A stretch of DNA of 64,000 bases from an uncultured Nitrospinota bacterium. Lineage in GTDB: Bacteria; Nitrospinota; Nitrospinia; Nitrospinales; JAJDAT01. Each line of letters starts with the position of its first letter. Within the stretch, counting starts at the first letter, position 1. The position numbers and the translations under genes are program-made. Below, piece by piece: positions 4,261 through 51,017 of the stretch. The notes below the pieces were generated by a model. It was not told the origin of the DNA, ran no database searches, and saw only the letters and a program-made list of their open reading frames with translations. The stretch is taken from NCBI GenBank assembly GCA_964344185.1, contig CAYFMN010000005.1:65516-129515 (forward strand), written 5' to 3'.

Positions 4261-4646
4261 GGTTGTTTTATAAATTTTTTTCAATATTGTTTTCTGATGA
4301 AGAGTTTAAATATCCTTATATGGATATTAAAGATTATATTTTTATTTAAATTCATCATTAGTTTCTTCGGTTGATTAAATATAAGCCCTTACCTATTATG
4401 AAAAATTTAGGGTTCGGAATTAAGAAAACCTTTAAAATTAATGAGTTATAATAAAAAAAATAAAGGTAACCCGTCAAAATTGTCAATATTGAAACAATTT
4501 AAGAAAGAACTAAAGGAGGGACTATTATCAAAAACCGTTATAACTTAAAGTAAATGGAGAAATAACTTCATCGGAAAGAATTTTCCAAAAAACTCGTTAA
4601 GTTCAAGGTAGGAAATATGGAAGGATTCTTAAAATTATGCTTTTAA

Positions 4647-5615: not shown

Positions 5616-5632
5616 AGGAAAATTAGGTAAGG

Positions 5633-11881: not shown

Positions 11882-12511
11882 ACTCCTCGGTTTTCAGGTG
11901 CGCAGTTTTAGCGTCATTTTTGTAAGCAATAGACACAAAAACTTAGACTTAATGCGTATTTGGATTTTTTAGATAATGAACTCGCTCTGGTTAGAGCCAA
12001 GAAGAAACTATCGTCGAAAGAATTATCTCGACGAATAGGCTTTTGCTAATACTACACTGGATTTTATATTTGGCCAATACCTTTGAAATCTAAATAATTT
12101 TAGTCTAGTTTTTTTACCCAAATAACAAACCTGTTCATTTTATAATAAGGCCAATTACAACTCTTTACGAGAACCCTACCACTTATCAAAAAAATTAATT
12201 AATCTTTATAAACCAATTAGTTACTGAGGTTCTTAAATTGTTCTTCGTAAGGGTTTTCCGAAAACTTGCATTGAAAATAAAATAAAGAAAACTTATAATT
12301 TAACGATAAGTTTAATAAACTTAAGAAGTTTACTAAAGATTTGAATCAAAAAAAATCTAGCTCCAAAAGTTAAAAATAAGGGATAATAAACAAGTAAACT
12401 CATTAATTAATAGGGAGTTTTCTTAATATTCCCTTTTAAATAGCATATCCTGCCATGAAAATTGGACTTAAAATTGAATTAGTCCATAACGCCATACGAA
12501 AGGTAAATTGA

Positions 12512-19193: not shown

Positions 19194-19284
<91 letters not shown>

Positions 19285-19349
19285 AATGTGGTATCTCTTT
19301 TAGGAAGGATAAAGATCTCTCGTTCTTTCCCGTTGCTTTCACCCTGCAA

Positions 19350-19436
19350 CGGAGAGAGAGGGATTCGAACCCTCGGTACCCGAATGGGTACAATAGATTT
19401 CGAGTCTATCGCCTTCGACCTCTCGGCCATCTCTCC
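19350..19436 (-). tRNA. tRNA-Ser(CGA), class II, no encoded CCA
   Basis: Reverse complement is GGAGAGATGGCCGAGAGGTCGAAGGCGATAGACTCGAAATCTATTGTACCCATTCGGGTACCGAGGGTTCGAATCCCTCTCTCTCCG. Anticodon loop is CTCGAAA. Confidence 0.9.
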
Positions 19437-19450
19437 AACGAACGAATGAG

Positions 19451-19524
19451 CACGCCCAAGAGGACTCGAACCTCCGACCTTCGGTTCCGCAAACCGACGC
19501 TCTATCCAGCTGAGCTATGGGCGC
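19451..19524 (-). tRNA. tRNA-Arg(GCG)
   Basis: Reverse complement is GCGCCCATAGCTCAGCTGGATAGAGCGTCGGTTTGCGGAACCGAAGGTCGGAGGTTCGAGTCCTCTTGGGCGTG. Stem TCGGT/ACCGA closes the loop TTGCGGA, giving anticodon GCG. A20 is present in the D-loop. Positions 1:72 form a G:U pair. Confidence 0.75.
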
Positions 19525-19647
19525 TTAATATTCGATATAAATTTAACTAAACCTATTTATAAAACCAAGGCTTTGGGAACTAAAATCAAAATGATTCCTA
19601 AGAAACTAACTCTAATTTAAGAGGAAACAACACTCCTACGGAACGTT

Positions 19648-19675
19648 GAGATCTCCCCACTTCGGTCGAGATGAC
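19648..19675. repeat. short intergenic hairpin repeat (GTCAT...GAGATCTC family)
   Basis: gagatctccccacttcggtcgagatgac. Its reverse complement is gtcatctcgaccgaagtggggagatctc, the same design as the copies at 45.2, 45.4 and 63.0-63.3 kb. Confidence 0.5.
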
Positions 19676-19726
19676 GTTAGGGAGTTAGTTCCTAAATCAA
19701 CAAACTAAAAATCCCAATAAAGAGTT

Positions 19727-20326
19727 TTAAGAGACTCCCATAGGAATATAATCGGTCAACAAAATTTCATACCGCTCATGTTCAAAACCGTAAAGTTTGG
19801 GAAACCGCTTAAACGCCCAACCTTCAAAAATCCGTTTGTCCTTTTCATGAACAATAAATTGAACGGCCGGGTTAGTAGGTTCATTACCCAAAGATGTATA
19901 GTATACCTTATCCATCACAAAGTTTGGAAAAAACGCCCCAACAGTAACCGTCAAATCGGAACCAGTCAAAACAAACGACTCGCCTAAATTAACGGTTTTG
20001 ACTTCGGTTTTTTCCTCGTCTTGTTTATCCTTTATTATAAACTTTACGGCTTTCCACTTTCCTTCAACTTCTTTGGGAATTTGTATTGCGCGTTGTTGTT
20101 TTTGATTCTCGGTAATTTCCGGATGATTTTCCACCTCGGTACGCGAACCTTCGGCGTAAGCCGAACTCTCAGCTTTAACCATTGGCTTTGGGGCCATACC
20201 CGGTAAATTAACCTCGCTTAAAGGGATTTCCCTTGGCTTTTGGTTTCTCTTGGCTAAATCCGCTTCCGAACAACCAAAAGAAACAAAAGCGATAATTAAT
20301 AAAAGAGTTTTCAGTCCTTGCATCAA
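19727..20326 (-). CDS. hypothetical lipoprotein embedded in the tRNA array
   Basis: 199 aa with signal peptide and lipobox (LLIIAFVSFGC|SE). No family confidently recognised. Confidence 0.65.
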   Translation of the reverse strand: MMQGLKTLLLIIAFVSFGCSEADLAKRNQKPREIPLSEVNLPGMAPKPMVKAESSAYAEGSRTEVENHPEITENQKQQRAIQIPKEVEGKWKAVKFIIKDKQDEEKTEVKTVNLGESFVLTGSDLTVTVGAFFPNFVMDKVYYTSLGNEPTNPAVQFIVHEKDKRIFEGWAFKRFPKLYGFEHERYEILLTDYIPMGVS

Positions 20327-20347
20327 GCGGTTTTATCCTAAGTTTTA

Positions 20348-20441
<94 letters not shown>

Positions 20442-20470
20442 TTATAATTCTCAATCAATAATAGCAACAA

Positions 20471-20553
20471 CGGAGGGAGTAGGATTCGAACCCACGGAAC
20501 TTTCGTTCAACGGTTTTCAAGACCGCCGCCTTAAACCACTCGGCCATCCCTCC
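20471..20553 (-). tRNA. tRNA-Ser(TGA), class II, no encoded CCA
   Basis: Reverse complement is GGAGGGATGGCCGAGTGGTTTAAGGCGGCGGTCTTGAAAACCGTTGAACGAAAGTTCCGTGGGTTCGAATCCTACTCCCTCCG. Anticodon loop is CTTGAAA. Confidence 0.85.
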
Positions 20554-25374: not shown

Positions 25375-27975
<2,601 letters not shown>

Positions 27976-28036: not shown

Positions 28037-28198
28037 TGTGGAAAAGCTAGCTAAGTACTCAAAATATAAAGGAAAATTCTATGAATAAATTGTTAGACAA
28101 AATGATACTTTTTTCGGACACGGAAGGATGTAACTTTTTTTACAATATTATACCTTATTTTCCACAAGGATTCACAATTAATTAACAGGTTATCCACG
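28037..28198. promoter_or_regulatory. cluster of four DnaA-box-like 9-mers in the dnaA-gyrB spacer
   Basis: tgtggaaaa at 28037-28045 (reverse complement TTTTCCACA), ttttccaca at 28158-28166, ggattcaca at 28168-28176, and ttatccacg at 28190-28198 (overlaps the dnaA stop). Consensus is TTATNCACA. Confidence 0.4.
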
Positions 28199-29524
28199 TT
28201 CTATTTTTTCGATTAAAGTTTGCACTGACCTGGATATTTCGTTGTTTTCTTTCAATAGCTTACCTATTTTTGTGTGCGAATAAATTACGGTGGTATGATC
28301 CTTCCCACCAAACTCTTTTCCGATCTCCGGTAAGGAGGATTTGGTGCGTTCCCTACACAGGAACATTGCAATTTGTCTTGGAACGGAAATATCACGAGAA
28401 CGCTTCTTGGATTTTAAATCAGAAACCTTTAAATTATAATGAGATGCGACTTGTTTCAGGATGTTTTGAATTGTAAAATTTTCTAAATGATCCTGGGAAA
28501 ACTTCTTGAAGACATTTTTGGCCAAATCCATATTTATAGGTTTTGAAGTAAAAGAAGAATATGCGATTAATCTCAATAGTATTCCTTCCAATTCCCTAAT
28601 GTTTGAGCGGATATTATTTGCTATATAAATCGCCACATCCTCGGATAGATTTATTCCTTGAATTTCTGCTTTTTTTAATAAAATCGCAACCTTAGTTTCC
28701 AAATCTGGAGGTTCCATATCCGCTATCAAACCGCATTCAAAGCGAGATCGGAGCCTTTCCTGAATTTTTTTCATTTCTTTTGGAATCGCGTCGCTTGTAA
28801 TAATAACCTGCTTGTGCGCCTCATATAGCGAATTAAACGTATAAAAAAACTCTTCCTGAGTTCGGTCCTTGCCTTCGATAAACTGAATATCGTCGACTAG
28901 TAGAACGTCTAAAGGTCGGTATCGGTCACGAAAAGCGTTCATACCATCCTTTTTCAATGACTGAATTAAATCGATAGTAAATCCTTCGGTGGAAACATAT
29001 CTGATTTTTAATTTTTTATTTTTTTCGTGAATAGCGTTACCAATAGCATGAAGGAGATGAGTTTTCCCTAAGCCAACAGAACCATAAATAAACAAGGGGT
29101 TATAGGCCATGGCGGGATTAGAGGCCACGGCTTTTGCCGCCGCGTGAGCGAATTGGTTGCAACCGCCCACTACAAAGTTTTTGAAAGTATATTTTTGATT
29201 AAGCGAGGAATTAAAACCTAAATGGTCTTGTTCGTTCGTTTCAATATAGTTGTGTTTTTCATATGAAATTTTTGTTCCGTTTCTTGCGGAATAAACTTTA
29301 AATTTAACGCGAAGCGGAGCTCCTGAAACGGTTTTTAGAGAGTTTTCTATTATATCTAGATAATTTTCTTTCAGGTATTTTTTGAAAAACTCATTGGGTA
29401 CGCCCAGAGTGAAAACCTGGCCGTCGTACGAAATTGGGGAGGTAGGGGTGAACCAGGTGTTATAGTTTTCTGGAACAACCTGATTTACTATTTCTTCTAA
29501 ACATTTGCTCCAGAGAACTTCCAT
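28190..29524 (-). CDS. dnaA: chromosomal replication initiator protein DnaA
   Basis: 444 aa with AAA+ Walker A (GSVGLGKTHLLHAIG), Walker B (LLVDDIQF), sensor region and the C-terminal domain IV HTH (...GGKDHTTVIYSHTKI...). Confidence 0.97.
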   Translation of the reverse strand: MEVLWSKCLEEIVNQVVPENYNTWFTPTSPISYDGQVFTLGVPNEFFKKYLKENYLDIIENSLKTVSGAPLRVKFKVYSARNGTKISYEKHNYIETNEQDHLGFNSSLNQKYTFKNFVVGGCNQFAHAAAKAVASNPAMAYNPLFIYGSVGLGKTHLLHAIGNAIHEKNKKLKIRYVSTEGFTIDLIQSLKKDGMNAFRDRYRPLDVLLVDDIQFIEGKDRTQEEFFYTFNSLYEAHKQVIITSDAIPKEMKKIQERLRSRFECGLIADMEPPDLETKVAILLKKAEIQGINLSEDVAIYIANNIRSNIRELEGILLRLIAYSSFTSKPINMDLAKNVFKKFSQDHLENFTIQNILKQVASHYNLKVSDLKSKKRSRDISVPRQIAMFLCRERTKSSLPEIGKEFGGKDHTTVIYSHTKIGKLLKENNEISRSVQTLIEKIERG

Positions 29525-32843: not shown

Positions 32844-33740
32844 TTAGAATGATTTCCAAGCGCCAATTATTCTACCCACTACTGGGTCGGGATATTCTTT
32901 TAAGTTTACGATTTGAATTTGTGCGGAGGGGTTAAGAGGTCGAAGAATCAAGAAACTTTTTCCCACTTCTACATATTTTGCCGTTAAGCCATTTTCATGA
33001 AAGATTGCGTACATTTGATTTTTTTCTATGGTTTTATCATTTCGGTCAATAATTACTATGTCTCCCGAGTGTAATGTAGGTTCCATAGAATCTCCTTCAA
33101 CACGGCTGGCTACAAGGTTATTACGTCGACCTGTGGCGCGGGTATGTAATAAGACATAGTCTTCGATATTCTCATGCTGAATGATGGGTTGTCCCGCCGC
33201 AATAGAAGAATCGGTTAGAGGAATTGAAATATAATCTTCTTGGTTAATTGCGGGGCCTCTTTGATCCGGATAGCTATTGTAAACTTTTAGCTGAGGAAGA
33301 ACTCGCTCTGATTCAGGTTTATCGTCGGTTAATATATTTTGAATTGAGGTTCCCAAACTAGTGCAAATTTTATTTATTAATTCTGTCGAAAATGACCAGG
33401 TCCCTTTTTCATAAAACTCCAAAGAAAGTTCGGGAATATCGATTTTTTGAGCGAGTTTTTTAACGGAAAACCCTTTTTGTTCTCTCAAATTCTTAATCTT
33501 CTTTGCGATTTTTTTATCCCATTGAGAAGATGACTTTTTGCCTGTCAGGAGCCAATTGAAATCCGCATGAAAATATGAAGAAATAGTCAACAATATTTCA
33601 GAAGATGGAACCGTTCTCCGCTGTTTCCATTTTTTAAGAGTGTCGTAGTTAAGATCGGTAACCTGCGAAAAAGATCGCAGAGAATTCCCTTCCAATAATT
33701 GAAAAAACCGATCAAAAATTTCCCCACCATTAAGCTTCAT
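32844..33740 (-). CDS. LexA/CI-like autocleavable repressor: two N-terminal HTH domains + S24 peptidase domain
   Basis: 298 aa. Carries two Cro/CI-XRE-type HTH segments (...LRSFSQVTDLNYDTLKKWKQ... and ...GFSVKKLAQKIDIPELSLEFYEKG...), an Ala-Gly cleavage-site context IAAGQP, and S24 motifs GDSMEPTL (Ser) and GLTAKYV (Lys). Confidence 0.8.
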   Translation of the reverse strand: MKLNGGEIFDRFFQLLEGNSLRSFSQVTDLNYDTLKKWKQRRTVPSSEILLTISSYFHADFNWLLTGKKSSSQWDKKIAKKIKNLREQKGFSVKKLAQKIDIPELSLEFYEKGTWSFSTELINKICTSLGTSIQNILTDDKPESERVLPQLKVYNSYPDQRGPAINQEDYISIPLTDSSIAAGQPIIQHENIEDYVLLHTRATGRRNNLVASRVEGDSMEPTLHSGDIVIIDRNDKTIEKNQMYAIFHENGLTAKYVEVGKSFLILRPLNPSAQIQIVNLKEYPDPVVGRIIGAWKSF

Positions 33741-37805: not shown

Positions 37806-38864
37806 ATGGCAAGTATTCCAAAAACAATTAGTGGAAGAGGGACTTCACAAAATCTACCCAACCGCTTTAAACCGTTTTCTCGAACAATAGACGGTTATTG
37901 CCATGAAACAGAAACTTCTGATCCTCAAACCGTTTTTTTTAAAGACGTTTCCCGATCAATTCTGTCCAAGAACGATAGCCCGGACATTCCTTTTGAATTG
38001 AGTTTAAATCCTTATAGAGGCTGCGAGCATGGGTGTGTTTACTGCTATGCGCGACCTATGCACGAATATTTAGAATGGTCAGCGGGATTGGATTTTGAAA
38101 CGAAAATATTAGTTAAAGAAAATGCGCCAGAGTTGCTTGAAAAAGCTTTTTCTTCTAAAACTTGGAAACCTCAAACGGTTGCGCTCAGCGGAGCTACAGA
38201 TCCTTACCAACCCGCTGAACGAAAATTCGAGATTTCCAGAAAGTGTCTTAAAGTTTTCCTAAAGTTTCGAAATCCGGTTGTCGCTATTACAAAAAATTAT
38301 TTAGCGATGCGAGATATCGATCTTTATTCACAATTAGCGCAACATAATTTAGCGGCTATATATATTTCGCTGAATAGTTTGGACGTTTCCCTTGCTCGCA
38401 AGATGGAACCTAGAGCTTCGTCTCCGGAGCGTCGATTAGAAGCTATTCGGAAATTGAGTGAAGCCAAAATTCCTGTTGGCGTCTTGGCGGCTCCGATTGT
38501 TCCGGGATTAAACGATTCTGAAATACCGGTTGTTCTAAGCGCAGCGGCGGAAGCAGGAGCAAAATTTGCGGGTTATGTTGTACTTAGGTTGCCACTCGCC
38601 GTCGAAGATTTATTTACCGAATGGTTAGAAGACGCTTATCCAAATAAAAAGGAAAAGGTTTTAAATCGTTTGCGTTCTTTGCGAGACGGCGAACTTTATA
38701 ATTCTGATTTTAGAACGCGCATGGTAGGGCAGGGAGTTTTTGCAAAACAAATTGCCGACTTGTTTAAACTCGCAAAGAAAAAAGCTGGGCTTTACAACAC
38801 AGGCCCAAAATTAGACGCCGATCAATTTATCCCGCCAAAAGGTCGTCAACTTTCATTATTTTAA
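37806..38864 (+). CDS. radical SAM protein (PA0069 / SplB-like COG1533 family)
   Basis: 352 aa with NPYRGCEHGCVYCYARP (CxxxCxxC) after a conserved N-terminus RGTSQNLPNRF. Confidence 0.8.
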   Translation: MASIPKTISGRGTSQNLPNRFKPFSRTIDGYCHETETSDPQTVFFKDVSRSILSKNDSPDIPFELSLNPYRGCEHGCVYCYARPMHEYLEWSAGLDFETKILVKENAPELLEKAFSSKTWKPQTVALSGATDPYQPAERKFEISRKCLKVFLKFRNPVVAITKNYLAMRDIDLYSQLAQHNLAAIYISLNSLDVSLARKMEPRASSPERRLEAIRKLSEAKIPVGVLAAPIVPGLNDSEIPVVLSAAAEAGAKFAGYVVLRLPLAVEDLFTEWLEDAYPNKKEKVLNRLRSLRDGELYNSDFRTRMVGQGVFAKQIADLFKLAKKKAGLYNTGPKLDADQFIPPKGRQLSLF

Positions 38865-38882: not shown

Positions 38883-39752
38883 TTAATTTTGCGGTTTATC
38901 CCAAGCGTCTTGAATTAACGTTAAAGGTTGATGGACCAGATGACATTTTTTACACGATTGTATTCCAATAGTTTCGACGCTTTGCCAGAATTTTTCGGGG
39001 TCTGGTTCTCCCGTTGCTAAATCCTTTTTCAGATCTTGAATAACTTCCAATATATCGTCGTTCACAAAAAATTGGCGAACGGATACCGCAGATCGAGACC
39101 ACTCTGAAACATGGCACTTGGAACATACTGATCGGAGTTCTTTTATCCTTTTTTGAAAATGATTAGCCGCTTGAAAAACTTTCATATATTGTTCTTGGGA
39201 AAAATTAACCGTCATTTCTTTAAAGTTTGACGATAAACGATACATGTAAGCTTTATAATCCATTTCTTCTTCGGAAATGGGATCTGCGACTTTTATTTTC
39301 TTTACGGACGGCATATGAAACTTTGCCCATACGGGTAAATAGTTTTGAGAATGGCATTTAGCGCAAGTTTTTGATACGGGACCAGACGCTTTTTTAATTT
39401 GTTTTGGATCGTGACTTTTCACGGATTCGTAGAAAGTTTCAGCCGCTTTTAAATCAAAAAGATCTTTCCATTCAGGAATCCATTTAGAAGCTTCGGTGTA
39501 ATTTTCCAAAAAACTTTTGGCTCCAGCTTCGGCATTTTTCCAATCGTTTTCTTTCATATCAACGAAAACTCCTCCGAAGGTCCCGCTAATTTTATGCATT
39601 TGTTGAATCCAGCGTGGAGTTTTGCTTTCCGGTGGATAGAACTTTTCTAATGATTTGGGCGGGGGAGAAATCACGTAATCGGCGGCTAAACTATAATTTG
39701 GAGCCAAAAACGCCAATATAACGGCAGCGGTCAAAATCATTCGGGTTTTCAT
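38883..39752 (-). CDS. exported tri-haem c-type cytochrome
   Basis: 289 aa with a signal peptide (MKTRMILTAAVILAFLAPNYSLA) and three CxxCH motifs (CAKCH, CSKCH, CKKCH). Confidence 0.75.
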   Translation of the reverse strand: MKTRMILTAAVILAFLAPNYSLAADYVISPPPKSLEKFYPPESKTPRWIQQMHKISGTFGGVFVDMKENDWKNAEAGAKSFLENYTEASKWIPEWKDLFDLKAAETFYESVKSHDPKQIKKASGPVSKTCAKCHSQNYLPVWAKFHMPSVKKIKVADPISEEEMDYKAYMYRLSSNFKEMTVNFSQEQYMKVFQAANHFQKRIKELRSVCSKCHVSEWSRSAVSVRQFFVNDDILEVIQDLKKDLATGEPDPEKFWQSVETIGIQSCKKCHLVHQPLTLIQDAWDKPQN

Positions 39753-39871: not shown

Positions 39872-42661
39872 TTAGTCATAGAAGGTCTCTCTGGCGTTGT
39901 AATAGGCTGATCTGTTTTTTCTTTCTTCCATTCTCACAGGTTTTTGGTGCGTTTCATCCAGATGTTTAGAACCTAATTTAACTATAATGGCGCCTCGGAC
40001 GCGAGCGTCCTTTTTCCGAGCAATTTTATAGTTTTTTTCGTCTATTACCGCTTCATTAAGGTTTGCGTGATGGAGAATCGTCGTGCCAAACTCTACGCCC
40101 CTCAAATCCGCTCCAGTGAGATCAGCGGCTCTCAAGTTTGCCATTGAAAAATCGGCTCTGCTAAAATCGGCCTCATGAAAAATAGATTCTGAAAGGTCCG
40201 CGCGTTTAAAACTGGATCTAGAAAAATTAGCCTCGGAAAAATCTAATCGTTTATTTGGATTGTTTTTCGTTAAAATCTGGTTATCAAAATTTAAATCGTG
40301 AAGAAATTGAAATACAAGTCGCGCTGGTAGTTTTTTATATAGAGCAATTCGTTTCAACAATGAAATAAATCCCCGAGGATCTCCCCATTCCACTTTAGTG
40401 GGGTTTTGAACGCTATTTCCACAATGAGCGGAAAAAGCCAGCAACGCCGTTGTTGTATTTGAGAAAAACCGATCCAAATTACCGGGATTATTTTCCATTT
40501 GCAGTTCGGTTAACGCCTCGCGCAATGGAAGATTGTTCCGAACGGCCTCTGACAAAAATAAACCGAATCTAAGTTGTAATGCTTTTATCGCTTCTTGATC
40601 GTGGCGAAATCGTTTTTCTTCGCCTTTTAATAATCTTATAATTTGGTTGTCTAAGAGAATTGGCCCCGTTAGTTTGATCCATTTCAATAAGGCTTGGTTC
40701 AAATTCCAGCCTTCATTGCCGCTAGATTCTTCGTGTCGTATTGTTTGCAATCTCATTTGCCATGCGGTGCCCGATAAACATCTCGCCACTAAATATTTTT
40801 GTAGATTCGGGAAAGAAAAATAGAATAAACGTTCGCCCGTCGGTGTCCATTCTGTTTCAAAAAAACAAGTTGTCATTAAACCTAGAATTGGATCGTCGCA
40901 AGAAAAAACGTTTGATAAAGATTCTAAAGATTCTTTACGATCAGAATCGTGAATGTGGTCTCGAATTTGATTTAAAGTCGCTGCGCCGCCATGGTTATTA
41001 CAGGCGACGGCGATATCCTCTAACAGCCGAAAATAATCTTTTTCTCGAAGAGGCCAGGATTGTTTTAAGAACTTCTTGAATAAATTAAATAACCGCGAAA
41101 AAATTTTTTCATAAATATTGTTGGCATTTTTTTCGCTTATTCCTTCATTTATCGCAATATCCGTCAATGTTTGGTTCATCCAGGGATTGCGAGAGATATC
41201 TTCAAACGGAATTGAATTGAATTTAGATAAGATTTCATCCGCTTTGGTCTCCAGTTGTTTTTGTAACGCGCTTTGCCATTTAATTCGGTTATCAAACGCT
41301 AAAGATTTTGACGCGTTAGCTCTGGTTTTTCGGATATCAAATTCAAATGGCAACAAAGAAAGGCATAAAGCTTTTTCTTTTAACGCTTCAGCGAGCCATT
41401 GCGCTGGAATATTATGAGAAGAAATTGCTATTTTTAAATTTTTGTTTTTATCTTCTTCAATCAATTGAATTATTTTTTTTGCAAACATATCTAAAGAAGA
41501 ACTTGATTCGGAGCTCAACCAAAGATCTTCAAGAAATTCTAAAATCAGGACAGTTTTTCTATCAGGTGGAAATAATCGGGTTTGTTCTTTTTGAAAAAAA
41601 CCTTGCGCTTGTAGACTTTCTAAAACCCCGTTTGCCGGTCCGCTTGTAGAGAGTATTTTTGACGCTGGCACAATAATGGGAAGGTGACTTCCAAACGGAT
41701 TGTTTGGGGAAGCCAGGGAAGCCGCCCATTTTCTAAACATGGTTGACTTTCCTGATCCAGGGGTTCCGGATACAAGAAAAAAAGGCGGAGAATCTTCGCT
41801 TTGAAGCCATTCATCTAAACAATTTTGAGCGTCTTCGATGAAACAAGGTTCCGACCAGGTTTCTTTTGTCATACCAGTTCCTGGATTTGGCCAATACTCC
41901 GCCATAGGGGGTATATAAATTTCTTTTTTTAAGTTAACCGATGGAACTTTATAAGAAACCAGGTTTTTTAAATAGGAAGCAAAATCTTCCTCGATCATGC
42001 GAGCGGAATTAATTTCCGATTTGCAAAAATTAAGAAAAGAACGATATCTGTTAAAATTTTTTGAAGCAATATTGAATAAATTGGATAAAAATAAGTTTTC
42101 GCAAACGGAAATAAAAATTTTGGTCTTCGCTTTTTCAAGGCCGAATTTTTCGATTTGAGCGCCTAACAATCGCCCCAATTCAGGAATGGGAGGATAGCTT
42201 CTTGGTCTGGATTCAATTACCGTCGAAAAAGAATAACTTTCGGCTTTTAAAGAAAGACTTTCAAGTTCTTTGTTGAACTCTATCCAATCACAATTTTCTA
42301 ATTGCGACTTATCCAGCGTTTCTTTGGAAATTCTTGATAAGGCTGTTTGAAAACTTTGGCGGTAGGCGTCTAGTAGCAGAAAAGTATAGGCTTCGCCAGG
42401 TTCTTCCAGTTTGTTTTCCGAAAGTTTTTCAAGAAAAGGTTCGTTTGATTTTTCAAAATTATGAGGTAATTGGAAAAGGCTTCCGGAGGCTATGGTTTTA
42501 CAAAATGCCTTTAAAGGATTTGCAATAGCCAAATCGAAACCGATTAACCATAATTCCTTGCCGGGTAATTCGGTTTTTCCTACTTTATCTTGAAGTGGAA
42601 CGTCTATGGCGAATATCTCCAAATAGGATTGAGAGATAAAATTTTTTAACCGCTTCGTCAA
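39872..42661 (-). CDS. STAND-type P-loop NTPase (NACHT-like) with unknown N-terminal domain and C-terminal pentapeptide repeats
   Basis: 929 aa. Walker A is SGTPGSGKST (encoded at about 41741-41767) and a Walker-B-like segment is VLILEFLEDL. A helical middle region follows. The C-terminus carries pentapeptide (A[DN]LxX) repeats, LDFSEANFSRSSFKRADLSESIFHEADFSRADFSMANLRAADLTGADLRGVEFGTTILHHANLNEA, encoded at about 40030-40270. Confidence 0.75.
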   Translation of the reverse strand: MTKRLKNFISQSYLEIFAIDVPLQDKVGKTELPGKELWLIGFDLAIANPLKAFCKTIASGSLFQLPHNFEKSNEPFLEKLSENKLEEPGEAYTFLLLDAYRQSFQTALSRISKETLDKSQLENCDWIEFNKELESLSLKAESYSFSTVIESRPRSYPPIPELGRLLGAQIEKFGLEKAKTKIFISVCENLFLSNLFNIASKNFNRYRSFLNFCKSEINSARMIEEDFASYLKNLVSYKVPSVNLKKEIYIPPMAEYWPNPGTGMTKETWSEPCFIEDAQNCLDEWLQSEDSPPFFLVSGTPGSGKSTMFRKWAASLASPNNPFGSHLPIIVPASKILSTSGPANGVLESLQAQGFFQKEQTRLFPPDRKTVLILEFLEDLWLSSESSSSLDMFAKKIIQLIEEDKNKNLKIAISSHNIPAQWLAEALKEKALCLSLLPFEFDIRKTRANASKSLAFDNRIKWQSALQKQLETKADEILSKFNSIPFEDISRNPWMNQTLTDIAINEGISEKNANNIYEKIFSRLFNLFKKFLKQSWPLREKDYFRLLEDIAVACNNHGGAATLNQIRDHIHDSDRKESLESLSNVFSCDDPILGLMTTCFFETEWTPTGERLFYFSFPNLQKYLVARCLSGTAWQMRLQTIRHEESSGNEGWNLNQALLKWIKLTGPILLDNQIIRLLKGEEKRFRHDQEAIKALQLRFGLFLSEAVRNNLPLREALTELQMENNPGNLDRFFSNTTTALLAFSAHCGNSVQNPTKVEWGDPRGFISLLKRIALYKKLPARLVFQFLHDLNFDNQILTKNNPNKRLDFSEANFSRSSFKRADLSESIFHEADFSRADFSMANLRAADLTGADLRGVEFGTTILHHANLNEAVIDEKNYKIARKKDARVRGAIIVKLGSKHLDETHQKPVRMEERKNRSAYYNARETFYD

Positions 42662-42777
42662 CGTAGTTAAAATTTGTTATTCCAATGCTTATTTATTTTA
42701 TATTAGAAACTGGTAAAAACGAAAAAAAAGCGGCGTATTGATTTTGTATTCTTGGAGATTTAAAGTCGTTAAAAACT

Positions 42778-42830
42778 TAAAAAAAAACGGATTCTCTGCT
42801 TCCTTTTGTTTGGAAGAGGAATCCGTTTTT
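42778..42830 (-). terminator. Rho-independent terminator downstream of tRNA-Asn (hairpin flanked by A9 and T5, potentially bidirectional)
   Basis: acggattctctgcttcc (42787-42803) pairs with ggaagaggaatccgt (42812-42826) as 8 bp + 5 bp around an internal loop. On the minus strand the hairpin is followed by a run of about 9 T. Confidence 0.65.
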
Positions 42831-42834
42831 ATAA

Positions 42835-42909
42835 TGGCTCCGGAGACAGGACTCGAACCTGTAACACAGCGGTTAACAGCCGCTTGCGCTACCATTGCGC
42901 CACTCCGGA
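42835..42909 (-). tRNA. tRNA-Asn(GTT), CCA encoded
   Basis: Reverse complement is TCCGGAGTGGCGCAATGGTAGCGCAAGCGGCTGTTAACCGCTGTGTTACAGGTTCGAGTCCTGTCTCCGGAGCCA. Anticodon loop is CTGTTAA. Confidence 0.9.
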
Positions 42910-44996: not shown

Positions 44997-45020
44997 GAGC
45001 TAAAAGCAAAAATAAAAAAT

Positions 45021-45047
45021 GTCACATTGAGGTTCTCGAAATGTGAC
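45021..45047. repeat. short hairpin repeat (TCACATTGAG...CGAAATGTGA type)
   Basis: gtcacattgaggttctcgaaatgtgac, with inverted ends gtcacat/atgtgac. A related copy lies at 45261-45284. Confidence 0.55.
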
Positions 45048-45098
45048 TCCCTTATTTTAGTTCCTTGGAATGTTCTCGAAGTACGACCACCTTTAAAA

Positions 45099-45120
45099 AG
45101 CCGGGCATTCTAGCCCGGCT
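45099..45120. terminator. GC-rich hairpin (possible bidirectional terminator)
   Basis: agccgggc attcta gcccggct, preceded by aaaaa and followed by ttcttcc. The T-run is better on the minus strand, where no gene ends. Confidence 0.35.
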
Positions 45121-45205
45121 TTCTTCCTCTATAATTGAAATAGAAATTAGATTTTAGGTTTATTCGTAAAACAAAGTTTCGCCTAAAGTGATCGGCCAAT
45201 CCGAC

Positions 45206-45244
45206 GTCATTCTGGAGGAGCTTTGAAAAAGCGACGAAGAATCT
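45206..45244. repeat. short intergenic repeat (GTCATTCTG...CGAAGAATCT type)
   Basis: gtcattctggaggagctttgaaaaagcgacgaagaatct. It has the same termini as the copies at 63017-63081 and 63301-63339. Confidence 0.55.
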
Positions 45245-45260
45245 AGGTATCAAAAAAATA

Positions 45261-45284
45261 TCACATTGAGCTTGTCGAAATGCA
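45261..45284. repeat. short hairpin repeat (TCACATTGAG...CGAAATG type), degenerate copy
   Basis: tcacattgagcttgtcgaaatgca. By hand alignment it matches 45022-45045 at about 20 of 24 positions. Confidence 0.5.
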
Positions 45285-45370
45285 ACTTCTTCCATCAGTT
45301 ATCTCGACTGAAGTGAATAGATCCCGTTTTTAGTTTAACAATCCGTTTTGTTTATAACCATCCCTACCGC

Positions 45371-45424
45371 GCGTTATTCCGAGCCCTTCGGCTTTGCTCA
45401 GAATAAACTCCGTCGAGGAATCTC
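45371..45424. repeat. short intergenic repeat (GTTATTCCGAG...GAGGAATCTC type)
   Basis: gcgttattccgagcccttcggctttgctcagaataaactccgtcgaggaatctc, with inner inverted repeat ttattc/gaataa. Confidence 0.5.
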
Positions 45425-45773
45425 GCTTAGATTCAAATAATTGTTATACCAAGGATCTCTTACTTAATTGCGCGACCATAACCAATTTTGTTTTCCAATT
45501 TTTTATTATCAGATCAACTTGGATTTGGCAGGGCAAAGTCTAAGTTAAGCCAATTTTCGTGAGCCCGAGCTTGATTCGGGTATTTTGGAAAACTAAAAGC
45601 AATGGACTATTTTCAGTTTGGTTAAAATATTGAAAGTTTTCCCCTTAATCTTAAAAAACCCTGAATTTCCTCTAGTTATTTTCCTTCCATGTAAAAAGTG
45701 TTTTTCACTGTCCTTCCTCTAGGTTACAATTGTTTCACAACTAAATTTTGTTAATTCCTTTCCAATCATCGCT

Positions 45774-48700
45774 ATGAAACCACTTCGCAAAATCTATTCG
45801 CTTGTTTTCATTCTATTGTTAATCGGAAATTTTGGATGTGGGGCGCCGCATTCAAAACCATATGCTGTTGCTTTAAATAAAGAAGCAAATGAAGCCGAAA
45901 CTTTAGCCGCCTCTGGAAATTATCGTAAAGGAGCGGAAGCATACGAAACCGCTTTAGAAAATTATAAGAAACAAAACAACAACGCAGGTATTTTATATTC
46001 TCTGGGACAAATGGGAATTATGCAAAAACGGGCTGGCGACTACGACGCGGCTTTAAAAACATTTAATGAAGCTAAAAATGTTGGCGTGAAAGTGAATGGC
46101 GATGCGGCGGAAATTGACGCTCATATTGGCGATGTTTATATGTTTATGGGCGATTTTAATAAAGCTCGGACCCAATACAATAACGCTTTGCAAACTCATA
46201 GCGGTTTTGTTTTTCCGACATCCTATGCGGGTCCTCCAAGTAAGGAAGAACTTTCTGAATTGATTCGTAAATCTAGCGCGATTGTCCGTTCGCAAGTTAA
46301 TTTGGGAGCTTTGAATTTATTTGAAGGCAAATTGGACGCCGCCGAAGCCGAGCTTAAAAAAGCGGAAAAATTGACCAAAGATATTTTATACGTTGGTAAT
46401 CATCCTATTTATGGGATGGTGTATAAGCCTGATACAGACGTATTCGAAGGAACAGGTTTTGCTAAAACTTTCCTGGGAGCTGTATACAAAGAAAAAGGCG
46501 ACGCACAAAAAGCGAAAGGCTATTTGCGCGAGGGTATGGCTTCTTTTGAAAAAGGAAACTCCGCTTTTGGAAAATCCGTCAACAGCGCCCTTTCGTTTCA
46601 ATTTGATTGGTTATCCGATTCCCAAAACGCTGAACGAAGAGTCGCCGCTGGCGATTATCCTTCTGCCGTTGCAGAGTATCAAAAACTAATCGGTCGTTAT
46701 AAAGAAAAAGGCGATTTTCGTCGTCAATTGATGGCTATCGAGAGAGCCGGTTGGCTTTTGCGAGAAATGGGTCAATACAGCGACGCCCTGGAATTACTGG
46801 CTCAAGGGGCTGAAATAGGCAGGCAGAAAAACGGCGACGCAGCGGAAATTGACGCTAATATTGGGGACGTTTATTTGTTTGCGGGAAACCGGCAGCGGGC
46901 TATGGAATATTTTGAAAAATCTTTAGCGCCTCACCAAGGATTTTCCATGCCAACGGGTAAAGCCGTTGAAGTTCCTAAAAAAGGCCAAATGTATAACTGG
47001 ATGAGAATCGCAAAAGCGATTATCCACGCTCAGGTCAATCGAGGAACGGTTTATTACTTTAATAAAAATCCGAATAAGGCTCTTGAGGCTTTGGACGAAG
47101 CAAAACAAATGGTTGACGCCGTTTTAGAAACCGCGAACCATCCAATCCGTGGCGTGTTTTATAGAGCCGATTCGGATTTGTATGAGGGTATTGGATTTTA
47201 CCGCGCAATTCGCGGCGCCGTTTTTGGCGAATTGAAACGGTTTGATCAATCTTCCAAGGAATTTGATTTGGCCTTAAAAATGTTTGTGCAGGCTGGCAGA
47301 CCCTATGGAGCTTTGATTACGCGTGCGCTTCGAATTCAAACAGAAACCTTGCAACCTGGCAAGAAGTTTTCCCAATCAGATATTTCCCGATATCAAGGTT
47401 TTTTAGTGGAAGCAGAAATGTTTGGAGCTTTAGATCTAGTTTGGCGAGTGGGTTATAGAGCCGGTTCCCTGTTGGCAAAAAACAAAAATTATGCGGAGGC
47501 AAAAAACTTTTTGGTCAAAGCCGTTGACGCTATTGAAAAGACTCGCTCGAACATTCGCGAAGATACAGTAAAGCAAATGTTCTCCGGATCGGTTCAAGAC
47601 GTTTATGAGGCCATTGTCGGTTTACTATTTGACATGGGAGAATTTTCTGAAGGTTTTAATTATTTAGAAAGAGGGAAAGCAAGAGCTTTCCTGGATATGC
47701 TGGCCGGTAGATCCTTAAAACCGAAAGTCGCCGCCGATCCGCAGATTATTCGTCAAATTGCCGACTTGGATAAACAAATTGAAAAAACGGCGCGAAGTTT
47801 AAAAGCTTTAAAAGGCGCAGAAAAACTTGGCGTTTACAAAAAGTTTAAGAGTTTATTAAAAGAAAAAAGTCGAGCGTTAGAGAAAATTAAAGATCAAAGC
47901 TTAAGTTACGCTTCTTCAATGTCGGTAGCTACCGCTTCGGCGAAAAAAATTCAAAGCTCATTGCCTAAAGGTGCGCTATTGATTTCTTATTTCCTGGAAG
48001 ATTCCCGCGCTGTTATTTGGACTGTCGAGCAAAGTTCGATTGAAGCGACCCTGGCAAAAAACGGCGGAAAGAAGATTGCTCAATGGGCTGCAGATTATAG
48101 AGAAGCTCTAGCTTCTGGCCAAATGCAGTTGGCAGAATCATTGGGAAGCAAACTTTATGATAGTTTAATTCAACCTGTCCGAAGTCGTTTGGACCCAAAA
48201 CAAAAACTTATTTTGGTTCCTTCCGGCGCTTTACATTACTTGCCATTTGCCGGACTTCATGGAAAGGACGGCAAATACCTGATAGAAAATCAAACAGTTT
48301 CTGTGCTTCCAAATGCGTCAAGTTTATTTTACGTTGAAGGGATTATTAAGACCGATAAAGGGAAGATACTTGCTTTTGGAGATCCTCAAAGAGACCAAAA
48401 AGAATCGCGTCTAAAATACGCTAATAAAGAAGTTGAAGCGGCTAGTAAATTATTTCCTAAAAAAATTACTTTAACCGGCGAAAGCGCTAAAGAATCCGTT
48501 TTAAAAAACTTATCAAAAATTGACGCAGAAGTATTACACTTTGCCGTACACGGACGTTTTGATGAACGAGATCCTTTGAAATCTGCATTATTATTAGCTA
48601 AAGATTCTAACGAAGACGGGGATTTAGAAACTTACGAGATATATGGATTGAATTTAAATTCCAATCTTGTGGTTTTAAGCGCTTGCGAATCTGGAATCGG

Positions 48701-48953
48701 TAAGCTTACGCGCGGCGATGAAGTGCAGAGTTTGAATCGCGCTTTTATTTATGCTGGAGCTGGCGGCGTGATAGCCAGTTTGTGGAAAGTTTCCGACGAA
48801 TCCACATTTAAACTAATGACTTATTTTTACGAAGAATTGTCCAAACGCGGACCGGCGGATGCCTTGCGTTTGGCTCAAATAAAATTAATGAAAGAGTTTC
48901 CTTCACCCTATCATTGGGCGGCTTTTTATTTAACCGGTAGATTGGATTCTTAG
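45774..48953 (+). CDS. exported TPR-repeat protein with C-terminal CHAT (caspase-like) protease domain
   Basis: 1059 aa. The N-terminal leader is LVFILLLIGNFGCGAP. Multiple TPR-like pairs follow. The CHAT domain carries a His/Cys dyad context: LHFAVHGRF (His) and LVVLSACESGIG (Cys). Confidence 0.8.
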   Translation: MKPLRKIYSLVFILLLIGNFGCGAPHSKPYAVALNKEANEAETLAASGNYRKGAEAYETALENYKKQNNNAGILYSLGQMGIMQKRAGDYDAALKTFNEAKNVGVKVNGDAAEIDAHIGDVYMFMGDFNKARTQYNNALQTHSGFVFPTSYAGPPSKEELSELIRKSSAIVRSQVNLGALNLFEGKLDAAEAELKKAEKLTKDILYVGNHPIYGMVYKPDTDVFEGTGFAKTFLGAVYKEKGDAQKAKGYLREGMASFEKGNSAFGKSVNSALSFQFDWLSDSQNAERRVAAGDYPSAVAEYQKLIGRYKEKGDFRRQLMAIERAGWLLREMGQYSDALELLAQGAEIGRQKNGDAAEIDANIGDVYLFAGNRQRAMEYFEKSLAPHQGFSMPTGKAVEVPKKGQMYNWMRIAKAIIHAQVNRGTVYYFNKNPNKALEALDEAKQMVDAVLETANHPIRGVFYRADSDLYEGIGFYRAIRGAVFGELKRFDQSSKEFDLALKMFVQAGRPYGALITRALRIQTETLQPGKKFSQSDISRYQGFLVEAEMFGALDLVWRVGYRAGSLLAKNKNYAEAKNFLVKAVDAIEKTRSNIREDTVKQMFSGSVQDVYEAIVGLLFDMGEFSEGFNYLERGKARAFLDMLAGRSLKPKVAADPQIIRQIADLDKQIEKTARSLKALKGAEKLGVYKKFKSLLKEKSRALEKIKDQSLSYASSMSVATASAKKIQSSLPKGALLISYFLEDSRAVIWTVEQSSIEATLAKNGGKKIAQWAADYREALASGQMQLAESLGSKLYDSLIQPVRSRLDPKQKLILVPSGALHYLPFAGLHGKDGKYLIENQTVSVLPNASSLFYVEGIIKTDKGKILAFGDPQRDQKESRLKYANKEVEAASKLFPKKITLTGESAKESVLKNLSKIDAEVLHFAVHGRFDERDPLKSALLLAKDSNEDGDLETYEIYGLNLNSNLVVLSACESGIGKLTRGDEVQSLNRAFIYAGAGGVIASLWKVSDESTFKLMTYFYEELSKRGPADALRLAQIKLMKEFPSPYHWAAFYLTGRLDS

Positions 48954-48956
48954 CGC

Positions 48957-51017
48957 TTGGAACCGAATAAAAAAAGCGCAAGGCAGTTGGTTTCTGCAAG
49001 CGTCGCGATTTTAGCGTGCTTATTGGCGATAGTCTTTTCTAATTGGTCGCCGATAGAAACGCTTGAAAATAAAACCATCGATTGGCGGCTTCGGTTTCGT
49101 CTTCCTAACTTTGAGGCGGGTAAAGAAGTGGCGGTCGTTTTGATAGACGATGCGGCGTTGGACGTGTATCCATATCGAAGCCCTGTGCCTCGCGATTTAC
49201 TAGCAAAATTAATAGATGTTCTTTCCGAAGCGGGCGTTAAACGAATTGGGTTGGATGTTTTTCTAAAAGATTTGACCTGGGAAGACGAGGACGAAGCGCT
49301 TGCGGAATCTTTAAGAGCTAATGGCCGAACGACGCTTGTATCTACTTTTCGCGAAGAAGACGGCAAAATAGTATGGGATTTACCTCATCCAAAATTTTTA
49401 GATTCTGTAGACTCCACAGGCTTGGCGGATTTACCGATAGATCCAATCGATCAAATTGTGCGGGAAGCGACGGCTCTAAAAAATAATTCGGAAACAATTG
49501 TTCCAACGCTTTCCGCCGCAATGCTTTTGGCTTCTAAAACATCGGAAGTGGGGAAACCGGAAGCTCCGAAAATTTTACAAGAAGCATTGCCGTCTTTTGC
49601 CCGTAAAGGTCAAAAGTTTATTGTTGATTTTTTAGGACCGCCTTCTTCCGTTAGCCGTGAAAAATATGCGATTAAGACGTTTCCGGCATCAGGCGTTCTT
49701 ACGGGATTTTTACCTAAGGAATGGTTTGCAGGCAAGTACGTTTTTATTGGCGCCGGTTTTTCCGATAACACGGACACCTTTCGCACTCCTTATTATAGTG
49801 GAAAATACAATTATCCCTTAACGCCTGGAGTGGAAATTCATGCGAACGTTTTGGCCACGCTTTTGAGCGGGGGAAAAATAAAAGCTTCTACAAATGTTCA
49901 AAAATTCGGGACAATTTTTCTAGGGGCTTTAGTGTCGGTAATTATCTCTTTTGTTTTTTCGCCGGTAATAGCGGCTTTTTTTGAAATTGTTTTCATTGCC
50001 GGGTTTGTTTTTGCAACGTTTGCAATGTTTGAAAAGGCGAATCTGCTTTTGCCAATGATACCCGTTGGCTTGGCGGTAGGTTTTGCTTTTATTGGAGCTA
50101 TAATTTATAAGCTAACCTGGGAAGGACGCCAAAAGCGGTGGATAAAAAACGCTTTTCAAATGTACCTGTCGCCAGAGTTCGTAGAAACCTTGTCCAAAAG
50201 CCCTGAACAGCTAAATTTGGGAGGGGAGGAAAGAGAACTCACTATAATGTTTACCGATCTGCAAGGATTTACCGCTATTTCGGAAACAGTCGAACCGAAA
50301 GAATTGGTGAACCTCCTGAGCGATTATTTTGATGGTATGACAGAAATTATTTTTAGGTACGGAGGCACTCTTGATAAATACGTTGGCGACGCTATTATGG
50401 CCTTTTGGAACGCTCCAACAGATCAAACGGACCATGCCGAAAGATCGGTTTTAGCGGCTATAGATATGATTGAGTTTACTGAAAATATGAGCCATTCGTT
50501 TCGAAAAAGAGGGAATCCTGAGATTCGAACGCGTATTGGAATCAACACGGGAAAAGCTGTTGTTGGTAATGTTGGTTCCAGAAAGAGGTTTAACTATACG
50601 GTAATGGGCGACGTGGTTAATACAGCGGCGAGATTGGAAAGCGTTAACAAGCAATATGGAACCTTTTTAACAATAAGCGAATCAACTTTTGATCGCGTAC
50701 GGGATAAAGTTCGAGCCAGGAAACTGGATGTTGTTCGAGTTAAAGGAAAAACCCAGCCGGTTGCTATTTATGAATTAATTGGTAGAAAAGGAAGGTCTTT
50801 AGACAGCGAGCGCGAACAGGTTATGGAGGCTTACTGCGAAGGGTTGGAGGCATATAATCGCCGGCATTGGGAAACCGCCATTCATCATTTTATATCGGCT
50901 CTCCAAATTGATCCAAACGACGGCCCGAGTAAAATTTATTTAGAGAGATGTAGAACGCTACGCGATAACCCACCTAAGAAAAGTTGGGATGGAGTTTTTA
51001 ATTTATTATCCAAATAA
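48957..51017 (+). CDS. CHASE2 sensor-domain class III adenylate/guanylate cyclase
   Basis: 686 aa with a TTG start 3 nt after the CHAT gene stop. An N-terminal TM is followed by a periplasmic CHASE2-like region and 3 TM helices. Cyclase motifs are MFTDLQGFT, YVGDAIMAFWNAP, IGINTGKAVVGNVGS and YTVMGDVVNTAARLES. The tail is TPR-like. Confidence 0.85.
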   Translation: MEPNKKSARQLVSASVAILACLLAIVFSNWSPIETLENKTIDWRLRFRLPNFEAGKEVAVVLIDDAALDVYPYRSPVPRDLLAKLIDVLSEAGVKRIGLDVFLKDLTWEDEDEALAESLRANGRTTLVSTFREEDGKIVWDLPHPKFLDSVDSTGLADLPIDPIDQIVREATALKNNSETIVPTLSAAMLLASKTSEVGKPEAPKILQEALPSFARKGQKFIVDFLGPPSSVSREKYAIKTFPASGVLTGFLPKEWFAGKYVFIGAGFSDNTDTFRTPYYSGKYNYPLTPGVEIHANVLATLLSGGKIKASTNVQKFGTIFLGALVSVIISFVFSPVIAAFFEIVFIAGFVFATFAMFEKANLLLPMIPVGLAVGFAFIGAIIYKLTWEGRQKRWIKNAFQMYLSPEFVETLSKSPEQLNLGGEERELTIMFTDLQGFTAISETVEPKELVNLLSDYFDGMTEIIFRYGGTLDKYVGDAIMAFWNAPTDQTDHAERSVLAAIDMIEFTENMSHSFRKRGNPEIRTRIGINTGKAVVGNVGSRKRFNYTVMGDVVNTAARLESVNKQYGTFLTISESTFDRVRDKVRARKLDVVRVKGKTQPVAIYELIGRKGRSLDSEREQVMEAYCEGLEAYNRRHWETAIHHFISALQIDPNDGPSKIYLERCRTLRDNPPKKSWDGVFNLLSK

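Follow-up and report, generated by a model that had tools for sequence, protein, structure and literature searches.

A diverged NACHT–pentapeptide protein with a replaced nucleotide-pocket signature, fixed beside tRNA-Asn in a Nitrospinota lineage

Several clades of bacterial NACHT proteins protect Escherichia coli from phage (Kibby et al., bioRxiv 10.1101/2022.07.19.500537). The same study introduced the NNH domains and counted pentapeptide repeats as one of the kinds of sensor repeat in bacterial NACHT proteins that form superstructures. Clade 9 in its Table S1 combines an NNH3 or NNH4 domain with NACHT and Pentapeptide domains and has members in cyanobacteria, Vibrio, Nitrospirae, and others. 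The signature that defines the NACHT Walker B motif is hhhhD[GAS]hDE, in which a small residue follows the Mg-coordinating aspartate and two acidic residues come after it (Kibby et al., bioRxiv 10.1101/2022.07.19.500537). The literature on NNH3, on bacterial NACHT proteins (bNACHT) with pentapeptide repeats, and on NACHT proteins of Nitrospina yielded nothing beyond this study and general NLR reviews. Here, we describe a protein of this kind encoded on the reverse strand at positions 39872-42661 of a 64,000-nucleotide stretch (the window) of contig CAYFMN010000005.1, which comes from an uncultured Nitrospinota bacterium (Nitrospinia, Nitrospinales). The initial annotation, made from the letters of the DNA, had seen in it a solo STAND NTPase and a candidate defence sensor inserted at a tRNA gene. 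The protein is indeed of the NACHT type, its nucleotide pocket departs from that of nearly the whole family, and its gene is a fixed part of the chromosome in the relatives compared.

The motifs of the nucleotide pocket were counted in an alignment of ten orthologues with 151 representatives of the family outside the orthologue group. The Walker A motif GxxGSGK[ST] is kept both in the family and in all ten orthologues. At Walker B the family reads D-G-L-D-E with hardly an exception (D in 151, G in 150, D in 151, and E in 150 representatives), and the canonical DGLDE is also kept in the local paralogues described below. The orthologues read E-[F/Y/C]-[L/V]-[E/D]-[D/E] instead, with E375 in all ten and acidic residues at 378 and 379, so that in the window protein the NACHT signature D[GAS]hDE is broken twice, by Glu in place of Asp and by Phe in place of the small residue. 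The sensor-1 arginine, present in 150 of the 151 representatives, is a histidine (H416) in every orthologue. The winged-helix motif FEFT-H-KSFxEYL, whose histidine is found in 151 of 151 representatives, has become F-x-F-S-F-P-N-L-Q-K-Y-L in the orthologue group, where the histidine position (617) is occupied by Phe or Tyr in all ten members, Tyr being the residue in orthologue P0010. The PLLNY motif of the family (L in 151, L in 150, N in 144, and Y in 142) is read as P-W-[M/I]-N-[Q/H]. The alignment thus shows a new feature: all orthologues replace three pocket residues that are almost invariant in the family and retain Walker A.

Walker B serves Mg2+ coordination and hydrolysis, and sensor 1 and the winged-helix domain (WHD) shape the nucleotide site and also the ADP-bound closed state of NLRs (PMC7583971). 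The replacements suggest that nucleotide cycling of the protein is impaired or re-tuned. In closed NLRC4 (4KXF), and in the MHD motifs of plants, the WHD histidine serves as an ADP latch. Our overall reading, which we hold to be somewhat probable, is that the gene is a NACHT paralogue of the clade-9 type which is specific to its lineage, has been inherited vertically, and has diverged strongly, and that it encodes a neofunctionalised NLR-like switch with a rewired nucleotide pocket.

The domain order of the protein is that of NACHT clade 9 of Kibby et al.; its putative placement in that clade is indirect, through nearest relatives that are NNH3–NACHT–pentapeptide proteins. The N-terminal region of about 290 residues, which the initial annotation could not assign, is by homology a diverged NNH3 domain (PF22735, NACHT N-terminal helical domain 3). 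With a cutoff of 27 bits, residues 52-234 of the window protein reach 18; the corresponding part of orthologue P0007 passes the cutoff at 34.3 bits, that of two paralogues from related genomes scores 71-74 bits, and that of the distant relatives P0011 and P0012 scores 140-142 bits. The N-terminal region is colinear with the family, and the window protein, its orthologues, the paralogues, and the distant relatives align end to end. Modelled alone, this domain is predicted to be an all-alpha bundle of about nine helices with a predicted local distance difference test score (pLDDT) of 74. The isolated model has no significant Foldseek match in the PDB (best E 0.9) or BFVD (best E 0.2), a hydropathy scan found no transmembrane-like segment (highest KD19 window 1.34), and the protein has no signal peptide. 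A nuclease, TIR, protease, or recognisable pore-forming N-terminus, the folds that had been proposed for a check, was rejected on the lack of a PDB or BFVD structural match and of a transmembrane segment.

The central module falls slightly short of the domain thresholds in the window protein (NPHP3_N at 22.6 bits against a cutoff of 24.8; Pfam NACHT at E 0.14). Orthologue P0007 reaches 27.2 bits with NPHP3_N, which is above the cutoff, and the canonical paralogue reaches 26.2 bits with Pfam NACHT, for which the cutoff is 26.7. The NACHT homology is therefore drawn from the family profile and the fold rather than from Pfam thresholds. A profile search of PDB sequences with the alignment of the N-terminus and NACHT module gave nothing significant, the best E being 0.028 in the P-loop region. 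The full-length AlphaFold2 model, built with 80 family sequences, has a mean pLDDT of 81.4 and a predicted template-modelling score of 0.76; residues 250-890 lie mostly above 85, and residues 897-929, the distal part of the C-terminal tail, are of low confidence. Beyond the NTPase core, the model contains a helical domain, a winged helix, and a second helical domain (residues 441-800). Its best PDB matches in Foldseek are NLRC4, NOD2, NLRP3, and NAIP5 (E 2.8e-10 to 1e-5), with alignments to the first three covering about 770-850 columns, and CED-4/Apaf-1, ORC, and MalT rank behind these NLRs. The C-terminus of the model matches stand-alone pentapeptide-repeat proteins. It scores 55.8 bits with Pfam Pentapeptide (PF00805, cutoff 20.2), and among NCBIfam models it matched sub-threshold pentapeptide families and no others. 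The repeats number 14, all in register, where about 16 had been estimated; they are predicted to form some 3.5 coils of an acidic right-handed quadrilateral beta-helix with an isoelectric point (pI) of 4.7. The initial annotation is thus borne out by Pfam, the family profile, and Foldseek in calling the protein a STAND NTPase with a pentapeptide C-terminus; the NTPase belongs to the NACHT/NLR type.

The family is large. A profile that covered the N-terminus, the NACHT module, and the helical region but left out the repeats was searched against 1.84 billion representatives and returned 2187 matches; 921 50%-identity clusters among these pass E<1e-30. Of the 150 matches listed, nearly all align over almost the whole profile. 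The window protein is about 20-27% identical to the family. Runs of pentapeptide repeats close the protein in 143 of the 151 representatives; together with clade 9, this makes a pentapeptide sensor, which had been thought unusual, normal for the family. The NNH3–NACHT–pentapeptide architecture is common and already described, and the window protein adds one more member to it.

Compared with clade 9, the window protein has the same components in the same order, namely NNH3, a NACHT module with winged-helix and helical extensions, and a pentapeptide beta-helix, and it aligns end to end with hundreds of clade-9-type proteins. It differs in that the Walker B signature, the sensor-1 arginine, the WHD histidine, and the PLLNY motif have been replaced, in its short run of 14 repeats followed by a unique and conserved basic tail of 54 residues, and in its fixation within the lineage, in contrast to the variable presence of the canonical local paralogue. 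With the animal proteins NLRC4, NOD2, NLRP3, and NAIP5 it shares the tripartite logic of an N-terminal output, a central NACHT, and a C-terminal repeat sensor, and the nucleotide-binding domain (NBD), first helical domain (HD1), WHD, and second helical domain (HD2) of these proteins are what the predicted model resembles most closely in structure. Sequence identity to them is, however, 10-12%, with pentapeptide repeats in place of leucine-rich repeats, NNH3 in place of CARD, PYD, or BIR, and Phe where their WHD histidine contacts ADP. Like the window protein, Avs and other antiviral STAND proteins combine a STAND NTPase, a sensor, and an N-terminal output domain in the product of a single gene; the window protein differs from them in its NACHT-type NTPase, in matching no PADLOC model for Avs or another defence STAND, and in having neither an enzymatic effector domain nor a defence-island context. 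Its A(D/N)LxX repeats and acidic surface recall Qnr and MfpA, although its NCBIfam scores for these families are 17-23 bits against cutoffs of 240-480. Qnr and MfpA are dimeric rods that mimic B-DNA and are far longer than about 3.5 coils. Gyrase-directed DNA mimicry of the Qnr/MfpA type was set aside as unlikely, given the short repeat domain and the low family scores.

Membership in a family with anti-phage relatives raises the possibility of a classical NLR-like or abortive-infection sensor, in which the beta-helix would sense a phage protein or a nucleic-acid-like cue, the NACHT module would oligomerise, and NNH3 would kill or arrest the cell, the gene itself being part of a tRNA-linked defence island. 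The protection that several NACHT clades give E. coli and the sensor function assigned to pentapeptide repeats (Kibby et al., bioRxiv 10.1101/2022.07.19.500537) speak for it, as do the adjoining tRNA gene and the conflict-type neighbours, which include a TPR-CHAT protein, a CHASE2 cyclase, and, in related genomes, a canonical NNH3–NACHT–pentapeptide paralogue. Its island component can be judged from gene order. Seven genomes were compared: the window, L001, L003, L004, L007 (identical to L009), L008, and the P0005 contig. The genome scan found four species-level loci and the metagenome scan found a duplicate of L007 and nothing else; both scans used two exact peptide patterns, by which more divergent orthologues could be missed. 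The gene order in all seven genomes is Ig_CycH – [tRNA-Asn] – NACHT gene – triheme cytochrome – (radical SAM) – electron transfer flavoprotein (ETF) beta – membrane protein. The upstream tRNA-Asn and its strong terminator, both reported in the initial annotation, are real; the terminator hairpin has a dG of -23.2 kcal/mol (z = -7.0), and ARAGORN placed tRNA-Asn at the same position in the three related loci on which it was run (L001, L003, and L004).

The gene is fixed at one chromosomal slot in every related genome available. Allowing up to 3 mismatches, a search for copies of the 3' end of tRNA-Asn returned the tRNA itself and no att-like repeat; the GC content of the gene is not anomalous (0.37-0.40 against 0.33-0.45 nearby), no integrase or mobility genes turned up among the neighbouring gene calls examined, and in the window dnaA and gyrB lie 10-15 kb away, the nearest at about 10 kb. 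The reading of the locus as a tRNA island or accessory insertion was rejected on the constant slot, the lack of an att repeat, the typical GC, the proximity of dnaA, and the uniform purifying selection reported below. The island context proposed earlier does not, then, fit this locus, and looking for presence or absence of the gene at tRNA-Asn in relatives found it present in all seven. The initial annotation had itself remarked that a housekeeping N-terminus with conserved synteny would point to a core gene; the synteny of a core gene was found for this lineage, and the N-terminus is not a housekeeping domain.

Selection on the gene was estimated from nonsynonymous to synonymous substitution ratios (dN/dS, Nei-Gojobori) between the window and L001 and L003. 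The ratio is about 0.10 for the whole gene, 0.03-0.15 for its separate domains, 0.12-0.15 for the pentapeptide region, and 0.03-0.07 for the basic tail, the lowest among its segments; housekeeping neighbours give 0.04-0.08 and the adjacent membrane protein 0.12-0.15. All of these values are rough, as dS (1.1-1.8) is near saturation. Identity among the ten orthologues is flat across the domains at 67-78%, with a mean of 0.67 in the pentapeptide region, and no domain is hypervariable: every one is under purifying selection. Relative to the window, the proteins of L001, L003, L004, and L008 are 63-80% identical for the NACHT protein, 61-76% for the adjacent membrane protein, and 61-90% for the cytochrome, ETF, radical SAM, Ig_CycH, and TPR-CHAT proteins. 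A pseudogene was rejected, since the reading frame is intact in ten lineages and dN/dS is about 0.1. The NACHT gene is intact in the P0005 contig, where its TPR-CHAT and radical-SAM neighbours are broken into fragments.

A canonical NNH3–NACHT paralogue with a long pentapeptide run, which keeps DGLDE, the sensor-1 arginine, and the WHD histidine, lies 3-6 kb from the gene in divergent orientation in three of the seven genomes (L001, L003, and L008), between the Ig_CycH and TPR-CHAT genes. The window, L004, L007, and the P0005 contig lack it, and no remnant of it could be detected in the corresponding window gap (44997-45773). Among the three genomes that carry it, the paralogue is 51-61% identical overall and 41-46% in the repeat region, against 72-74% overall for the gene described here; the repeats of its orthologues are 62-82% identical to those of the window copy. 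The canonical paralogue thus behaves like an accessory arms-race gene, unlike its fixed relative. The conserved basic tail of the orthologues (pI 10.1) is absent from the canonical paralogues. Outside the orthologue group, the nearest relatives of the window protein are these local paralogues, at 173, 137, and 129 bits against 116 or less for any of the 151 representatives; the paralogues themselves score a median of 258 bits and 28.5% identity with the general family and 187-211 bits with the window protein. Because the nearest relatives are the paralogues and these are closer to the general family than to the window protein, the simplest reading of the scores is a duplication inside the lineage, after which the present copy diverged at a faster pace.

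The gap also holds short, repeated, hairpin-like elements, for instance at about 45021-45049 ('tgtcacattgaggttctcgaaatgtgac') with a related copy near 45255-45290, and both match the same stretch of L001. They may be small elements like repetitive extragenic palindromes at a site where relatives carry the paralogue.

The presence of a copy with degenerate motifs 3-6 kb from a divergently oriented canonical one in L001, L003, and L008 brings to mind the sensor and helper pairs of plants, in which the degenerate protein would work only with its canonical partner. The partner is missing from four of the seven genomes, the window included, where the degenerate copy is nonetheless intact and constrained; this largely refutes such a pair, which we regard as highly improbable.

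These comparisons also bear on the anti-phage sensor. Its island component is refuted by the slot shared by all seven genomes, the lack of an att repeat and of nearby mobility genes, the normal GC, and the position close to dnaA. The putative sensor is not diversifying, in contrast to the repeats of the paralogue, and the switch residues that are invariant in the family have been lost. PADLOC, run on the window protein, one orthologue, and the canonical paralogues, did not recognise the protein beyond a 17-bit P-loop match to mad8, and the paralogues went unrecognised too. Clade 9 carries no tested label in the catalogue discussed below. We therefore judge an anti-phage sensor of this classical kind rather unlikely.

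The combination of lost switch residues and purifying selection would also be expected of a domesticated, non-immune pseudo-NTPase scaffold or regulator for which the nucleotide cycle is dispensable, perhaps linked to the cytochrome c or to the Ig_CycH/ETF respiratory neighbourhood. That dN/dS is lowest in the unique basic tail and that the gene is kept where the TPR-CHAT and radical-SAM neighbours decay are in keeping with such a protein. So is the position of the cytochrome gene, which follows directly downstream on the same strand in seven of seven genomes, after a 119-bp spacer in which no terminator is recognisable. The initial annotation had called the NACHT gene monocistronic, which this spacer does not bear out. 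The cytochrome noted in the initial annotation is a periplasmic c-type protein with three CxxCH motifs and a signal peptide, however, and the NACHT protein has neither signal peptide nor transmembrane segment. A physical link between the two is unlikely because the cytochrome is periplasmic, and adjacency among close relatives can be explained by simple inheritance. The strictly kept Walker A argues that nucleotide binding still matters. This scaffold looks quite unlikely to us.

Under the preferred reading of a neofunctionalised NLR-like switch, the protein would still be an intracellular STAND-type switch or scaffold. Its acidic pentapeptide beta-helix and basic tail would bind a conserved partner or ligand, which could be endogenous, rather than a fast-evolving phage protein. 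Through the NBD–HD1–WHD–HD2 module, binding would lead to opening and oligomerisation and so bring together copies of the all-helical NNH3 domain, which would act as an output or adaptor without enzymatic activity. With its intact P-loop, the pocket probably still takes up nucleotide. NLRs are normally held closed by a latch between ADP and the histidine and are reset by arginine-assisted hydrolysis; both are probably weakened or lost here, and control would then come mainly from ligand or partner binding rather than from an ATPase cycle. A guard-type or regulatory sensor that is constitutively maintained seems to us more likely than a phage receptor engaged in an arms race. A defence role is possible by analogy with the family; support specific to this protein was absent in the PADLOC search, in the genomic context, where no island was found, and in the sensor, which is not diversifying.

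Several points weigh against this reading. Glutamate falls within the general Walker B consensus hhhh(D/E) (PMC7583971). Mg2+ binding may thus persist, as Glu is allowed and the downstream acidic pair is kept. Histidine, for its part, is able to hydrogen-bond phosphate, and because of this and of the permitted Glu the NTPase may still cycle. The seven genomes are close relatives whose housekeeping proteins are 80-90% identical, and conserved synteny among them is invariance within a lineage, which by itself is no proof of a non-defence role. The near-saturated dS already mentioned makes the evidence of constraint less exact. None of the 18 clade-9 rows in Table S1 of Kibby et al. carries a tested bNACHT label (bioRxiv 10.1101/2022.07.19.500537), a fact that also leaves the anti-phage sensor described above without a tested relative in that table.

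The positions of the gene, its parts, and the features discussed with it are given in Table 1. The open reading frame spans the coordinates first reported; its length of 929 residues holds when counting starts at the first possible start codon, a TTG. A second TTG lies at 42613, and eight of the ten orthologous gene calls start at the matching place (M/L-E-I/T/V-F-...); the true protein is therefore probably about 913 residues long. Ten full-length orthologues with 63-100% identity were aligned. The two motifs first reported were both located, GTPGSGKST at residues 299-307 and VLILEFLEDL at residues 371-380.

Table 1. Positions of the NACHT gene, its predicted domains and motifs, and associated features (window coordinates unless a related locus is named; residues numbered from the first TTG).
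Feature	Position	Strand	Basis or remark
Whole open reading frame: NNH3–NACHT–pentapeptide–basic tail protein	39872..42661	-	Stop codon 39872-39874
Diverged NNH3 domain, residues ~17-240, all-alpha, ~9 helices	41942..42613	-	Pfam and AlphaFold2
Pre-NBD strands and P-loop nucleotide-binding domain of NACHT module, residues ~245-440	41342..41929	-	AlphaFold2 pLDDT 85-96, Foldseek
Walker A G299-TPGSGK-S306	41744..41767	-	GxxGSGK[ST] in all 10 orthologues
Walker B VLIL-E375-F-L-E-D379	41525..41551	-	Replaces family-invariant hhhh-D-G-L-D-E
Sensor-1 strand I-A-I-S-S-H416-N	41411..41431	-	His in place of family Arg
HD1–winged helix–HD2 helical extension and linker helices, residues 441-800	40262..41341	-	AlphaFold2 pLDDT mostly 85-97
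Winged-helix motif F613-YFS-F617-PNLQKYL	40790..40825	-	Replaces family FEFTHKSFxEYL
14 pentapeptide repeats, residues 806-875	40037..40246	-	Pfam PF00805, pLDDT >90, Foldseek
Conserved basic C-terminal tail, residues 876-929, 54 aa	39875..40036	-	Orthologue alignment, pI 10.1
tRNA-Asn(GUU), directly upstream of the NACHT gene	42835..42909	-	tRNA prediction
Intrinsic terminator of tRNA-Asn gene	42774..42830	-	Hairpin 42783-42830, then U9 run
Triheme c-type cytochrome, 289 aa, 3 x CxxCH, signal peptide, periplasmic	38883-39752	-	Weak Pfam: cytochrome c', NapC/NirT
Canonical NNH3–NACHT–long-pentapeptide paralogue, 970-1052 aa	L001:4141-7101, L003:4269-7181, L008 ~4500-7650	-	DGLDE, sensor-1 Arg, WHD His kept

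Other genes of the window were recorded alongside. A TPR–CHAT (caspase-like) protein of 1059 residues is encoded at 45774-48953 (+), and a gap of 3 bp separates its gene from the next one, for a CHASE2–nucleotide cyclase of 686 residues at 48957-51017 (+). The cyclase domain matches the PADLOC PycC models at E 1e-32, which probably reflects generic homology among class III cyclases. The pair is kept in L001, L003, L007, and L008; L004 lacks the TPR-CHAT gene, and in the P0005 contig that gene is in fragments. A radical-SAM gene (37806-38864) adjoins the cytochrome gene; it appears fragmented or pseudogenised in L004 (~12100-13150) and in the P0005 contig, and the NACHT, cytochrome, and ETF genes are intact there. 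The presence of gyrB at 25375-27975 and dnaA at 28190-29524 (-) shows that the window takes in the part of the chromosome near the replication origin. Between dnaA and the gene for the 507-residue membrane protein lie genes that L004 and the P0005 contig do not have there, among them a helix-turn-helix–peptidase S24 (LexA/CI-like) gene at 32844-33740. Five tRNA genes lie at 19194-20553 (-), four of them tRNA-Ser with different anticodons and one tRNA-Arg.

A further account of the locus is that of a domesticated NLR-related gene. The present copy would have become fixed after local duplication of a canonical, variably present gene of the defence type, would have swapped its Walker B signature, sensor-1 arginine, and WHD histidine and gained a basic tail, and would now act independently of a nucleotide cycle as a pseudo-NTPase scaffold or regulator, either non-immune or guard-type. 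We offer this account tentatively and consider it somewhat doubtful. If true, it would provide a prokaryotic counterpart of the degenerate 'sensor' NLRs of plants or of the non-immune NLRPs of animals. What gives the locus its interest is the contrast that it holds: the canonical gene is variable and has fast-evolving repeats, and its nearest relative is fixed and evenly constrained, with its switch residues replaced. If the switch is really rewired, the pair would be a natural experiment on which parts of the NLR cycle are dispensable, and it would show how bacteria recruit STAND proteins of the immune type to other roles.

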